Position numbers and translations under genes: made by a program. Positions 57,637 through 63,441 of a stretch of DNA of 64,000 bases are shown here, piece after piece; position 1 is the stretch's first letter; each line of letters begins with the position of its first letter. The stretch comes from an uncultured Verrucomicrobiae bacterium (GTDB lineage: Bacteria; Verrucomicrobiota; Verrucomicrobiia; Chthoniobacterales; UBA10450), in assembly GCA_963772365.1 (NCBI GenBank), contig CAVYXA010000001.1:1184001-1248000 (forward strand), read 5' to 3'. The notes below the pieces were generated by a model, which saw nothing but the letters and a program-made list of their open reading frames with translations, was not told where the DNA came from and made no database searches.

Positions 57637-57654
57637 GGCGTGTCCGGTCTCAAA

Positions 57655-57716
57655 TTGTAGGGCAACCGCTCCGGTTGCCGCCGCTTGGTCTGGCAAGCGA
57701 AGCGCTTGCCCTACAA
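57655..57716. repeat. GTAG-type REP doublet, family A
   Basis: TTGTAGGGCAACCGCTCCGGTTGCC...TTGCCCTACAA; contains the stop codon of the second RAYT. Confidence 0.87.
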
Positions 57717-58202
57717 TTTCAAATCTGGTAATTCGTAGCGATACGGCCAATCTTCTGGTCGTTTTATCAAGCTGGCTCGTACCGGGTTTTCTTCAATGTA
57801 TAGCCATTTTTCATACACCGATTCCTAGGCCCGTAGGAGGCGGTCAAAACAACCTGGTTGCCATTTCCAGGAAGCATGTAGTTCCTGTCGCATCCAGCGT
57901 TTTAATGCCGCCGCAAGATTTCCGACCCTGGCCTCGCGATCTTTTGTTGGCGCGGCCAGAATATGAAGATGATCAGGCATGACTACGGCGGCGAGCATAT
58001 TCCAGTCGCTCAGCTTCGCCGCAGCATTTTTGAATGCAATGAAAGCGCGGTCATTTCCCAGGACAGGTTTTCGATTCGCCACACAAATCGTGACGAAATA
58101 AGTCACGGATTGGTCCCAGCGTAACCAAACAGGAATCCTCGGTGGATGACCTATTGTCCTAATATTGCCAGGCGATGCGCCCGCCCTACAACACGAAACC
58201 AT
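57711..58202 (-). pseudogene. Second RAYT, interrupted by an in-frame TAG at 57825-57827
   Basis: YFVTIC, VVMPDHLH, WQPGCFDRLLRA*ESVYEKWLYIEENPVRASL..RPEDWPY. Confidence 0.85.
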
Positions 58203-58248
58203 GAATGCCGGTGCTCTTACAAATTGTAGGGCAACCGCTCCGGTTGCC
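58170..58248. repeat. Family A REP halves upstream of the second RAYT
   Basis: GCCCGCCCTACAA at about 58179-58191 and TTGTAGGGCAACCGCTCCGGTTGCC at 58224-58248. Confidence 0.78.
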
Positions 58249-58333
58249 ATGTCTTCATCATTATTTTGGCTTCGGGTTTGGTCATTCTCCTGGGCGGTTT
58301 GCGTTTCAATTCTAAATCGCGGAAGATTTCCTG

Positions 58334-59749
58334 ATGGCTTTTGATCTCAAAGAAATCATCGCCGCGCGACTCGGCGAAAATTATCAACTGCACGAGAAGC
58401 ACGTGAATCGCACGCTCGTGCAGGCCCAGCGTGTCATCGGTTTCGATAAAGTCTATGCCCGGGCCGAGGGCGCATATCTCTACGACATGGATAATGTCGC
58501 CTATCTCGATTTCCTCAGCGGCTACAGCGTTTTCAACATCGGCCGCAATCATCCCGTGGTGAAGAAAGCGATCCGCGACGTGCTCGATCTCGATTTGCCG
58601 AACATGGTGCAAATGGATTGTTCGCTCTTGAGCGGCTTACTGGCGGAAGCGATCGTCAAACGCACACCGTCCCATCTCGATGCCGTATTCTTTTGCAACT
58701 CCGGCACCGAAGCGACGGAGGGCGCGATCAAATTTGCGCGCGCCGCTACGGGCCGGAAACGGATGATCTCATTGGCGAGCGCGTTTCACGGGTTGAGCGT
58801 CGGTTCGCTTTCGCTCATGGGCTGCCAAAGTTTTACCGAAGGTTTTGGACCGTTGATGGAAGGATTCGACGCGCGCGTGCCGCTCGATAACATCGACGAG
58901 TTAGATCGACAATTGCGTTCGCGCGATGTCGGCGGGTTCGTGATCGAGACCGTTCAGGGCAAAGGTTGCCAGACATCGAAGACCGATTTTTTCCCGCGCG
59001 CACAGGAACTTTGCCGCAAGTACGGCACACTCTTAATTTCTGATGAAGTCCAGACCGGACTTGGTCGGACCGGGAAAATGTTTGGCTTCGAACATTGGAA
59101 CTTGGAGCCGGACATCATCACGCTCGCGAAAACGTTGAGCGGCGGCTACGTCCCGTGCGGCGCGATCGTGACGAGGCGCGACATTTACCAGAAAACATTT
59201 TCGCGGATGGACCGTTGCGTTGTTCATTCAACGACGTTCGGCCGGAACAATTTAGCCATGGCCTGCGGACTGGCCGCGCTGGAAGTGATCGATCAGGAAA
59301 ACCTGGTCGAGCGCGCGGCGAAGATGGGCGCGCTGCTCATGGAGAAGATCGACAATCTGAAGTCGAAACATTCGTTCATCAAAGAAGTCCGCGGCAAAGG
59401 GTTAATGATCGGGATCGAATTTCACGAGCCGAGCGAGTTCAAGCTCAAGATGGCCTGGAAACTTTTGCACAAGATCGACAAGGTGTTGTTCGCACAGATG
59501 ATCGTGACCCAGATGTTGAGCAAATATCGGATCCTCACCCAGGTCGCCGGTCATGCCATGGACGTGATGAAAATTCTTCCACCGCTCATCATTGAGGAAA
59601 AAGAAGTGGACATATTCGTGAATGCGCTCGACGGGGTGCTTACCGAGTGCCGCAAATTCCCCGGCCCGATGTGGGAGCTGGGAAACAATTTCGTCAAAGC
59701 CGCGCTCGGCTCGAGAAAATCATCCGAGCCAAAGCCGGTTTCGGCGTAG
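58334..59749 (+). CDS. Class III PLP aminotransferase, HpnO-like
   Basis: YLDFLSG, GRNHP, NSGTEA, DEVQTG.GRTG and AKTLSGG; N-terminus resembles HpnO. Confidence 0.85.
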   Translation: MAFDLKEIIAARLGENYQLHEKHVNRTLVQAQRVIGFDKVYARAEGAYLYDMDNVAYLDFLSGYSVFNIGRNHPVVKKAIRDVLDLDLPNMVQMDCSLLSGLLAEAIVKRTPSHLDAVFFCNSGTEATEGAIKFARAATGRKRMISLASAFHGLSVGSLSLMGCQSFTEGFGPLMEGFDARVPLDNIDELDRQLRSRDVGGFVIETVQGKGCQTSKTDFFPRAQELCRKYGTLLISDEVQTGLGRTGKMFGFEHWNLEPDIITLAKTLSGGYVPCGAIVTRRDIYQKTFSRMDRCVVHSTTFGRNNLAMACGLAALEVIDQENLVERAAKMGALLMEKIDNLKSKHSFIKEVRGKGLMIGIEFHEPSEFKLKMAWKLLHKIDKVLFAQMIVTQMLSKYRILTQVAGHAMDVMKILPPLIIEEKEVDIFVNALDGVLTECRKFPGPMWELGNNFVKAALGSRKSSEPKPVSA

Positions 59750-59754
59750 CGCAA

Positions 59755-59779
59755 TTGTAGGGCAAGCGCTGCGCTTGCC
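59755..59779. repeat. Single family A REP
   Basis: TTGTAGGGCAAGCGCTGCGCTTGCC. Confidence 0.75.
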
Positions 59780-60057
59780 GTGCATACCTCGGGCTGCAGC
59801 GAGTCTAGTTCACGGTGCGTTTTTCGATTGGTTTGAATAGTCGAGTTCAGTCGCGCTTCTAACTTCCCTTTTGCAGTCCCGGAAAACGCGGGACGATGTT
59901 TACGCAGGAGTCATCACGCGATGTGGGTGGCTCTAGCCTTGAAGCGTTCGGATGGTAAGCGAAGCAGCGCGATCGGCTAGTCTGCTTCGTGAGAAGCTGG
60001 AGTTTCGGTAATTTTTAGAAATTAGCGCAGGCTTGCGCTTGGTTGTCGCGCCTACGC

Positions 60058-60319: not shown

Positions 60320-61264
60320 TCATTGCCGTAGATCTGTCGCTAGCATATTCATGCAGAAAGCTAGCTTCCACGCATCGCCATCTTTGACATAAACCGAGTT
60401 ACCGTGCACGGGCGGAACTTTTTCGCCGTAGCAGGTGCCGTCCGCCGTGCCCGTATGCATCAGCAGCCTGACGGTGGGCGAGAGCGCTGTGGCAACTCCA
60501 TCAGTCACGTCGACGCTCTTGATCTCGCAGATGGCACCGATCCAAGCTTTGATGGTGTCAGGCTTATTGCTGTAAGAGTTGCCGAAGATGTCGATAAACG
60601 AAAGGTCGGCGCTCGTTAGATCTTTGAGTTTCTGAGCGTCGTGCGCCTTCCAAGCTTCCCAAACGGATTTTTCCACGGCGACCAAAGCGTCGGTGCTTGG
60701 GTCGGTCGACGTGATCCCAGTTTCCTTGGCCGGCTGCGCAGGCGGCACCGTAGTTTTAGGCGAATCCTTGGGATCGATGATTGGGTTCTCGCCATGGAAC
60801 GCAGCCAGCCACTTGCCGCCGCCGCGAATCCAGATCGTGGCGGTCCGCGTCGGGCTCGGGATCTTCGCCGGTTTACCGTCCGCCGCCGTACACGTTCCGT
60901 CGCATGTGCTCCGATAGCTCAATACGTATGTGTCGGCGTCGATCTTTGCCATCCAAGGCTCGTCGAGGTTCCAGGTTTTAACATCACACTTGTTGCCAGC
61001 AATCATCTTCACGATGGCAGCCCTGTCCATCCGCTGCCCGCTTTGGCGCATGACGAACTTCTCGCTCAGTAAATTCTCGAAAAATTTCGCGTCACCTTTG
61101 CTGTAGGCTTCATCCGCCTGCTTTTCTAAAACCAGCAGTGTGTCGATTGTCGGTGACTGCGCGACAGAGTCAGAGGCATTACTACCGTTTTGGGCGTCCA
61201 CCCCGCTGTCCACAAAATAGGCCGAGGCTATCAACGTTAAAGTTAGCAGATTGTTCGGTTTCAT
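60320..61264 (-). CDS. Exported protein with tandem NTF2-like (DUF4440) domains, cassette-array gene
   Basis: Signal peptide; two repeats of LEK...EA...D....L and VW/VY..G..W.A. Confidence 0.8.
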   Translation of the reverse strand: MKPNNLLTLTLIASAYFVDSGVDAQNGSNASDSVAQSPTIDTLLVLEKQADEAYSKGDAKFFENLLSEKFVMRQSGQRMDRAAIVKMIAGNKCDVKTWNLDEPWMAKIDADTYVLSYRSTCDGTCTAADGKPAKIPSPTRTATIWIRGGGKWLAAFHGENPIIDPKDSPKTTVPPAQPAKETGITSTDPSTDALVAVEKSVWEAWKAHDAQKLKDLTSADLSFIDIFGNSYSNKPDTIKAWIGAICEIKSVDVTDGVATALSPTVRLLMHTGTADGTCYGEKVPPVHGNSVYVKDGDAWKLAFCMNMLATDLRQ

Positions 61265-61570
61265 AATTTTCTTTCTAGTTGAAAAGGTGCTTCCCGGCGG
61301 GAACCGCGGCATTTCATCTAACGAGAATAAGAAGAGCGACGGCGATCTTTGCAAAACAATACGGCGGGAGTGCGTGAGCGTGAAGACCTGAATCGCACTA
61401 GGGGAGCCGGGACCTTGGATGAAGTCCAAGCGAGCGCGCGCGTCGTGCCCGGTAGAAGTGTGGAAGTCATCAAGTCATCTCAAAAGTGGAAGCGTACAGC
61501 GGTCCGCCGTTCGCTCCATCGCCTAGATGGCATGTAAGGGTGCGGGCGAGTGGTTAAGCTCACCCGCACT

Positions 61571-62674
61571 ATGCAAAATACAATCGTTCATAACGAAGGG
61601 GCGACCTCACCCGAGGGCGCCGTTGGTAAAGTAAAGCTCCCGTGCTCGGTGATCAAGCTTGGACTGGACATGCACGCCCGGGTCTATGTGGTAGTGGCCC
61701 AATACGATCAGCTCTTGCCCAAGGCGCCTCGACGCTTTGCCCCTCCCGAGTTTGTTCCCTGGGTGGAAGCAGTGTTGCGAAGGGGTCACACGGTTCATGT
61801 GGTTTATGAGGCGTGCGGGTTTGGCTTCGGACTGTATCGGCAGTTGTGTGCCGCTGGAGCACATTGCTGCGTGATTGCGCCGCGCAAACTCGACGAACAG
61901 GGCACGGGAATAAAAACCGATCCGCGCGATGCTCTGACATTGTGTCAGCGGCTCTCGCGTTATGTGGAAGGCAACACCTGGGAACTGGCCGTGATTCGGG
62001 TGCCGAGCGAAGAAGAAGAACAGGCCCGGCATGTTTCGCGTCAGCGTGGCCAACTGGTGCATCATCGGCAGAAGCTCGAAGCCCAAGGGCGCTCGCTGCT
62101 AATCAATCACGCGCTGGCAGCGCCGGCTCATTGGTGGAAACAACAGACCTGGAGCCGATTGGGCAAACATCTGCCGGTCTGGATCAGGCTACGGCTGGAT
62201 GTGGCACGACCCGCTCTTTTGAGTTTAGAGGAGCAAATTAACGCCCTAACCAGTGAATTGGAAGCGGCGGCGGGGGCTTGCATACCGGCCGGGATCGGCA
62301 AACTCACCAGCGTGGTGCTCACTCGCGAGATCTGTAATTGGCACCGGTTTAACAATCGGCGCGCGATCAGTTCTTACACCGGACTGTGTCCCGGCGAGCG
62401 CAGCAGCGGGAGTAAACGAGTTCCGGGCAGTGTGACCAAACGAGGCAACCCGCGGCTAAGAGCCGCGCTGGTCGAGTGCGCCTGGCGCATGGTGCGTTTC
62501 CAGCCGCAATATCCACCAGTTAAAAAACGGCTCGCTATCCTGGCAAAGGACGCGCCCGCCACCGGCGCACAACGCAAAAAAGCCATCGTCGCTGTGGCCC
62601 GGCATTTGGCCGTCGATCTGTGGCGCGTGCACACCGGACGCTGTAGCGCAGCCCGGCTCGGCCTAATTAATTAA
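61571..62674 (+). CDS. IS110-family DEDD transposase/recombinase
   Basis: GLDMH, YEACG, KTDPRDA, YTGLCP.ERSSG, KRGNPRLR and AVARHLA motifs. Confidence 0.93.
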   Translation: MQNTIVHNEGATSPEGAVGKVKLPCSVIKLGLDMHARVYVVVAQYDQLLPKAPRRFAPPEFVPWVEAVLRRGHTVHVVYEACGFGFGLYRQLCAAGAHCCVIAPRKLDEQGTGIKTDPRDALTLCQRLSRYVEGNTWELAVIRVPSEEEEQARHVSRQRGQLVHHRQKLEAQGRSLLINHALAAPAHWWKQQTWSRLGKHLPVWIRLRLDVARPALLSLEEQINALTSELEAAAGACIPAGIGKLTSVVLTREICNWHRFNNRRAISSYTGLCPGERSSGSKRVPGSVTKRGNPRLRAALVECAWRMVRFQPQYPPVKKRLAILAKDAPATGAQRKKAIVAVARHLAVDLWRVHTGRCSAARLGLIN

Positions 62675-62960
62675 CTACTCAAGTTCGAGGGGAACAGTTT
62701 TGGAACGTGGCGCGTGTCCGGGATCTAACCTGAACCGTTAAAACGACGAGCTTCGTCGCTTTAGATTGGACCGCGCCAAAGTTCCGCTTCAGTCGAGACG
62801 GAATAAGTCACATTGCGCTGTCAAAATTAACATCGACATGCGCGGATAGGAGTATCAGCCGCTGAACAATCCAAAGCGCGCACCAAAAGCGGAAGCGTTC
62901 CTACCCAAGTTCAACCCCACAACCTGACAAACCAATGTAACCGTCATCCTCAAAACTTAT
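62675..62960 (+). ncRNA. Candidate seekRNA/bridge RNA region
   Basis: Structured non-coding region (stem 62702-62719 with 62768-62785) with short matches to the target flanks and the circle junction; boundaries unknown. Confidence 0.6.
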
Positions 62961-62996
62961 CTTTGACACCCTTCATAGGGGTTAGATGATTAGCTG

Positions 62997-63320
62997 TCAT
63001 AATCTCACGAGCTTTTCTTCTGCGAGTCTCTGAACGAACGGCAATTCAGACTCGACGATCCAGAACTCATCTGGCGTGTCATGAAATCCGGCGAGTTCGT
63101 CCCGGCCTCGCTTCAATTTGAAATCGCGCGTCGCACGGATGCGGGCGTTCGTGCACCAACTCGCGATGAGCTCGGGAAACTTCGAGCTCGGATAACGCTT
63201 GCGGTCTATGATGGCTGTCGTGCCATCGGAGTATTCCTGGAGCAAACGCCGCAAGACCGCTGAGTAACGTTTCGTACGAATGGCAATCACCTTCGGCGAC
63301 TCGCGACGCGTCCACATCAT
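62997..63320 (-). CDS. Hypothetical gene-cassette protein
   Basis: ATG overlaps the R' box of one attC; stop lies 9 bp before the next attC. Confidence 0.72.
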   Translation of the reverse strand: MMWTRRESPKVIAIRTKRYSAVLRRLLQEYSDGTTAIIDRKRYPSSKFPELIASWCTNARIRATRDFKLKRGRDELAGFHDTPDEFWIVESELPFVQRLAEEKLVRL

Positions 63321-63441
63321 CTAACGAGACACAAGATCAGCTACCGCGCCCGGGAGCGCGCGTGGCCGCAAGTTGAAGGTTCTAGCTACTCTCAGCGGGG
63401 AAGCAGAACGGGGCGCGGTTAGCTGCATCGCCTGGTTAGAC
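63319..63441 (-). other. Integron attC site (123 bp), intact
   Basis: Minus strand: GTCTAAC-CAGGCGATGCAGCTAACCGCGCC...GGCGCGGTAGCTGATCTTGTGTCTC-GTTAGAT. Confidence 0.9.

Follow-up and report, generated by a model that had tools for sequence, protein, structure and literature searches.

A predicted bridge-type guide RNA beside an IS110-family recombinase inserted in an integron attC site

Described guide RNAs and the element in the window

RNA-guided targeting of integron attC sites has, as such, already been published: seekRNAs have been shown for the attC-targeting elements ISKpn4 and ISPst6, with their guides in the same order as reported below (PMC11187229). These two elements fall with ISPa21 and ISPa25 into one cluster that stands apart from ISEc45 (PMC11208160), and the published identity between ISPst6 and IS5708 is 35.6% (PMC11187229). 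The other closely related system is IS621, whose bridge RNA has two internal loops and four guides (PMC11208160, PMC11208158, PMC13626964), and a bridge RNA has also been predicted for ISCARN28 (PMC11208160).

The window, by which we mean the whole stretch of 64,000 nucleotides that was analysed, from an uncultured Verrucomicrobiae bacterium, contains an intact IS110-family element, and the region of interest (62675-62979) is the 3′ non-coding end of that element (Table 1). An earlier note, made from the letters alone, had proposed that this region encodes a guide RNA for the transposase. The host genome carries a second full copy at C1:823670-825124, with 5 differences in 1,455 bases, and a partial third copy on C2. 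Because the second full copy has other flanks, the ends of the element could be placed at 61525 and 62979. The transposase matches NF033542 with 184 bits (cut-off 140), and residues D33, E80, D117 and D120 are all present, as is an SG motif at 279-280. Directly 5′ of its ATG lies a strong hairpin (61540-61569), kept with changed letters in most close relatives, that may mask the ribosome-binding site.

The 7-nt and 3-nt extensions outside the sub-terminal repeats, the long 3′ region and the top-strand guide placed first are features of the IS1111 layout, whose ends are described in this form in PMC11187229; the inverted repeat here spans 10 bp, and one base more at the left end. The likeness to ISKpn4, ISPst6 and ISPa25 goes further, encompassing an RNA 3′ of the transposase, two target guides of which the one complementary to the top strand comes first, use of one attC end, the same end extensions, no target duplication and a fixed orientation in attC. 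In contrast, the transposase has 367 aa whereas those of IS1111 proper have 330-350 aa (PMC11187229), and its motifs are of the ISSso6/ISEc45 type, unlike those of ISKpn4, ISPst6 and ISPa25. The nearest named transposases found are indeed those of ISEc45 and ISSso6 (29.3% and 28.3% identity), and ISEc45, which PMC11187229 lists as IS1111, has the same end layout. The branch formed by ISEc45, ISSso6 and ISCARN28 nevertheless differs from the present element: identities are <30%, our covariance model (R1) has no match in the downstream regions of its members, and the flanks in the two loci examined are not attC-like. A literature search that had most subscription journals outside its coverage found no report of an attC-targeting element from the ISSso6/ISEc45 branch.

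With IS621 the element shares the two internal loops and four guides, a donor core CT preceded by AT, and a handshake AU after the second target guide. It differs from IS621 in that its RNA lies 3′ of the gene, in a frame reversed relative to the gene, and in having long sub-terminal repeats and a second target guide that is longer and bulged. Furthermore, an identical 2-nt core in donor and target, which is a feature of IS621, is absent in the clade of attC-inserted relatives (hereafter the attC clade): the second T of the core is almost invariant in IS621 (PMC11208158), whereas in 46 of 48 attC-clade loci the target reads CC and differs from the donor core. Donor and target do share their core in 14 distant loci. 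ISEc11, too, inserts without added bases (PMC11187229). On the evidence presented below, the region very probably specifies a bridge-type RNA, ~200 nt long, that guides the DEDD recombinase encoded next to it and acts through a circular intermediate, pairing by two loops, strand exchange and a handshake.

Table 1. Positions, in the window, of the element, its predicted RNA and its target. R'', L'' and R' are the names of the attC boxes.
Feature	Position	Strand	Basis or remark
Whole insertion sequence, 1,455 bp	61525..62979	+	Ends from second full copy and partial third copy
Left end: 7-nt extension 61525-61531, then sub-terminal inverted repeat 61532-61542	61525..61542	+	
DEDD transposase/recombinase, 367 aa from ATG at 61571	61571..62674	+	PF01548, PF02371; NF033542
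Predicted bridge RNA or long seekRNA, two internal loops	62700..62901	+	Alignment of 36 relatives; ends are a prediction
Target-binding loop with outer stem	62708..62778	+	Two-sided changes in 11/11 pairs
First target guide, complement of R'' box plus 2-nt target core	62723..62730	+	Covaries with right flank
Second target guide 62754-62762 (one base bulged), core-pairing AG 62763-62764, handshake AT 62765-62766	62754..62766	+	
First donor guide, against left end	62805..62813	+	Weakest of the four, 5 exact and 1 wobble of 9; missed in the earlier note
Second donor guide 62846-62850, core AG 62851-62852, handshake bases 62853-62854	62846..62854	+	
Right end: TTGACA 62963-62968, inverted repeat 62967-62976, 3-nt extension	62963..62979	+	
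R'' box of interrupted attC (62981-62987) and one base before the insertion point	62980..62987	-	Comparison with empty sites
Rest of interrupted attC: L'' arm adjoining the element, R' box at 61316-61322	61316..61524	-	
Neighbouring empty attC, the uninterrupted target	63319..63441	-	14/15 against the guides

Covariation of the guides with targets and ends

Three sets of loci were compared: from metagenomes, the 80 best of 577 matches; from 401 genomes of the phylum, 14 loci, the host's own two included; and 10 loci obtained with a single distant protein as query, 9 of which are true relatives. The C2 copy was added as well. Parsing gave 92 rows, 91 of them with all guide fields, 66 with a usable right flank and 65 in the class test described below, from which the misparsed row L024 was left out. 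The alignment of the RNA took 36 of 50 dereplicated RNA regions.

The first of the matches proposed in the earlier note, between ATCTAACC (62723-62730) and the right flank, is present in the window and covaries with the flank in relatives. When the loci are sorted into six guide classes, the guides of each class score 5.76-6 of 6 against their own flanks and 1-5 against the flanks of others, and only 1 of 720 permutations reaches that sum. In the attC clade, two guide bases vary, and 39 of 47 loci have both of them complementary to the flank, compared with 17.1 expected, a count matched in 0 of 10,000 permutations. The relatives are not independent of each other; counted as one locus per 90% RNA cluster, the attC clade gives 20.1 of 25 against 8.8. 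This two-base rule is broken in 8 of the 47 loci and also, outside the 47, in the host's C2 copy, whose flank differs from the guide at two bases.

More distant relatives extend this pattern. At L074, which is 68% identical, the target guide and its site have both changed, and the element sits in a palindrome that matches the guide; its donor guide and right end have also changed together. Nine copies of a 41%-identical relative in one genome (G054) all have the right flank that their guide predicts (9/9), and another relative, represented by seven loci, has the predicted flank in six, the remaining one having a damaged right end. The earlier note had raised the possibility of a naturally attC-programmed, RNA-guided recombinase that might be reprogrammable. 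Covariation at the level of sequence supports this proposal, and the case for reprogrammability is a comparative one, because relatives with the same scaffold and other guides sit in matching other targets.

The match suggested between CGTCGCTT (62754-62761) and the left flank, allowing wobble pairs, is likewise there, but it needs a 1-nt bulge next to the core. Over 59 loci, the second target guide fits the left flank at 6.39 of 8 positions with a one-base bulge and at 2.71 without it, and we rejected the unbulged direct register for this guide on these values. In distant relatives, the direct register mostly fits equally well or better. The left flank of the full copy at C1:823670-825124 matches this guide poorly. 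Taken over the relatives, the target guides complement both strands and covary with their targets.

On the donor side, ATAGGAG (62846-62852) had been noticed as equal to the sequence across the predicted circle junction, and it corresponds to the right donor guide plus core. The variable base of this guide occurs in three variants and agrees with the base of the right end in all 77 of 77 loci. The handshake base of the donor loop is the target base in 64 of 65, and that of the target loop is left-end base 3 in 83 of 85, which is how the handshake bases of IS621 behave (PMC11208158, PMC13626964). Few separate changes underlie the donor and handshake counts. The first donor guide shifts, as judged by eye, with the left end in L086, L095 and L103. 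One relative (L102:2395-2563) has an RNA that lacks the 5′ half of the target loop and keeps the donor loop.

Joined right and left ends are found in 5 of the 80 metagenome contigs of relatives, an arrangement compatible with a circle or a tandem. The -35 sequence TTGACA is conserved, with 52 of 74 counted ends carrying it 11 nt ahead of the junction. The remark in the earlier note that no convincing -10 lies across the junction was confirmed: TTGACA is followed by no good -10 across the junction, and a sigma-70 scan of one junction-bearing contig found no promoter.

Fold of the RNA and rival explanations

The letters and positions given earlier for the stem arms (62702-62719 and 62768-62785), for ATAGGAG and for TTGACA all proved correct. 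None of 200 shuffles folds as well as the 88-nt stem-loop at 62700-62787 (z -4.45), and the fold of the whole 305-nt region has a z of -2.40. In the 36-relative alignment there are two stems, each broken by a large internal loop, and 16 of 19 consensus pairs show compensatory changes. For the 29 pairs that we named individually, 91.4% of cells are paired, compared with 83.2% in shuffles and 30-49% when the pairs are slid, and 22 of the 29 have two-sided changes. The homologue comparison, covariance model and guide-site covariation for which the earlier note had called were carried out, and the guides held up.

The long stem itself is present, but its outer five pairs compete with an equally conserved helix of longer range. 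The 5′ arm has two possible partners, closing a short form of 84 nt in one case (162 of 173 cells paired) and a form of 200 nt in the other (191 of 207). Both of these alternative closing helices are conserved, with few compensatory changes. By analogy, they may recall the short and long seekRNAs.

Model R1 matches 62700-62917 in the window, finds only the three element copies in the host genome, with no orphan RNA copies, and has matches in 6 of 150 genomes of the host phylum, host included. An Rfam scan of the window returned three tRNAs only, none in this region, and a sequence comparison with solved structures gave no match.

Three other explanations need to be weighed against a bridge-type RNA. 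The matches could be due to chance or be a by-product of internal pairing in the RNA, with targeting by the protein, for example through a folded attC hairpin. Each match is 7-8 nt long, and a single-sequence fold does pair the guides internally. Among 20,000 random 305-nt sequences with the dinucleotide frequencies of the region, an exact 8-nt match occurs in 117, a 7-nt junction match in 238, and a wobble match in 2,794 (14%), which makes the last weak alone; the first two matches occur together in 12 and all three in 0. The internal ATCTAA/TTAGAT pairing, entered as a caveat in the earlier note, is not conserved (62.5% of cells paired, with 1 two-sided pair against 2.3 in shuffles), and we rejected it as the cause of the matches. 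Guides also change with targets in clades whose targets are not attC. Chance or internal pairing is therefore largely refuted by covariation, and we give it almost no credence. It is also highly improbable that the element descends from the IS1111-attC group (ISKpn4, ISPst6, ISPa21 and ISPa25) and inherited its targeting, even though the attC end, the orientation to the cassette, the 3′ non-coding region, the 7+3 ends and the guide order are all the same. L109, a truncated element that came from a short-motif scan and was judged ISKpn4/ISPst6-like by eye against a table in PMC11187229, uses the same attC end and orientation but is inserted 6 nt from R'' rather than 1 nt, and its RNA region has no significant match to the present scaffold by blastn or model R1. 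The protein stub of L109 gave no usable alignment to this transposase, and protein searches for an ISKpn4-type transposase found none by name. The transposase scores 100-108 bits to ISEc45/ISSso6 and 62-64 bits to IS5075/IS5708. In a 32-protein tree (midpoint root, ISKpn4 not included), L074 is the sister of the attC clade (97/86), which is placed among relatives that have other targets; a 100/100 branch separates the clade, together with ISSso6/ISEc45, from IS5075/IS5708. The matrix of PMC11187229 gives 18.45% identity between ISEc45 and ISKpn4.

The remaining alternative follows the seekRNA model, in which a short target-loop RNA of ~84 nt (62702-62785) would act alone, the protein would read the element ends via the inverted repeats, and the donor loop would be dispensable or serve processing. 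According to PMC11187229, seekRNAs of 70-100 nt outnumber the long form, and a short one is enough for ISEc11. Moreover, the helix that closes the short form is conserved here, as noted above, and the left donor guide is weak. Against this stand the right donor guide, which tracks the right end in every locus counted and through all of its variants, the two-sided changes in 3 of 4 pairs of the donor-loop stem, and the donor-loop handshake bases, which track the target. We consider a short RNA acting alone to be unlikely, and a two-loop bridge-type RNA remains our preferred reading.

The attC target and the meaning of the insertion

Compared with the empty site at 63319-63441, the element is inserted 1 nt inside the R'' box, in the direction opposite to the cassette genes and without duplication. 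Because the cassette ORFs are on the minus strand, the right flank that ATCTAACC was said to match is, in cassette orientation, the R'' (inverse core) box and not the crossover end. All three host copies have a right flank that starts GGTTAG and holds an R'' box. We rejected insertion at the R' crossover end. A strict motif for the partner R' box occurs in only 16 of 35 attC-clade loci, compared with 13 of 952 background windows. An integron integrase lies ~1.5 kb beyond the end of the window (TIGR02249, 485 bits, cut-off 265).

A scan of the host genome with the guides only, using a 15-point score designed with the target already known, found four sites at 15/15, all of them empty attC ends. 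At 14/15, 13 of 15 sites are not attC, and the guides alone are therefore not fully specific.

Several other features of these arrays were observed. The interrupted attC is ~95 bp longer than its neighbours of ~123 bp, seemingly through an extra insert in the variable region (61346-61440). The cassette adjoining the element (60320-61429, minus strand) has a product that is likely secreted and contains two DUF4440/SnoaL-like domains; the start of its ORF is probably near 61264. At L001:1380-1470, L050:1380-1470 and L065:140-215, the right end of another element (TTGACA...CATAG) lies ~12-14 nt to the left of the element in the same attC arm, which suggests that a second lineage targets attC and inserts at another point. 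In the host (G000:C2:45990-46110, within L115), an attC end carries an additional G at the point of insertion, and its right flank resembles that of the partial copy nearby; it is possibly an excision scar. The host also has attC clusters distant from the integrase gene (C1:823108, C2:14537, C2:45521-48258 and C3:766750-768050), two of which hold element copies. Elsewhere in the window, an ORF of Y1 (IS200-like) transposase type at 57825-58250 is surrounded by REP-like repeats, each 26-29 nt long, that form direct as well as inverted pairs. This locus (57651-59785) might be that of a REP-associated tyrosine transposase, the Pfam score of the ORF being below the cut-off.

The sequence anatomy of the bridge-type RNA, the conservation of its fold, the covariation of its guides with target and donor, and the joined ends in contigs of relatives are all observed. 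Work on IS621 and on seekRNAs suggests how transcription, protein binding, pairing, strand exchange and the locking of a cassette would proceed from there. On excision, the right end of the element would become joined to its left end in a circle. Pairing of the donor loop would involve both sides of the circle junction, and the target loop would pair with the R'' box on one strand and with spacer/L'' bases on the other. The recombinase would then exchange strands at the 2-nt core, and the handshake bases beside the core guides would favor the exchanged state, and with it insertion, as in IS621. By landing 1 nt inside the R'' box, the element would split attC, and the integrase probably could not excise that cassette.

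The lineage appears to have reached attC independently of the described attC elements, ISKpn4 being outside the tree. Convergence is suggested because the scaffold has no detectable similarity, the transposase is distant, the insertion point is another one, the core is mismatched and the guide is bulged. It is also possible that the two closing helices, which are both conserved and exclude each other, act as a switch by which the RNA takes either a short form with the target loop only or a long form with both loops. Perhaps all of these features belong together, such that attC was reached independently by reprogramming of a guide, a CT donor core is recombined with a CC target core by means of a bulged, extended guide, and a helix switch selects the form of the RNA. 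We offer this joint reading only tentatively and regard it as somewhat doubtful.

Since the mechanism is already known, the surprise in these findings is limited. If the joint reading is true, nature would have produced a bridge recombinase to which the rule of a shared core does not apply, and its helix switch would bring the seekRNA and bridge RNA models together within a single element. Should the core mismatch hold at the bench, it has a bearing on one limit in the design of bridge recombinases for genome editing. The six target classes form a natural, readable series of reprogrammed guides on one scaffold, and the comparison suggests that integron attC sites have been reached at least twice by unrelated RNA-guided elements. 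In the host, the insertion probably fixes cassettes in the array.
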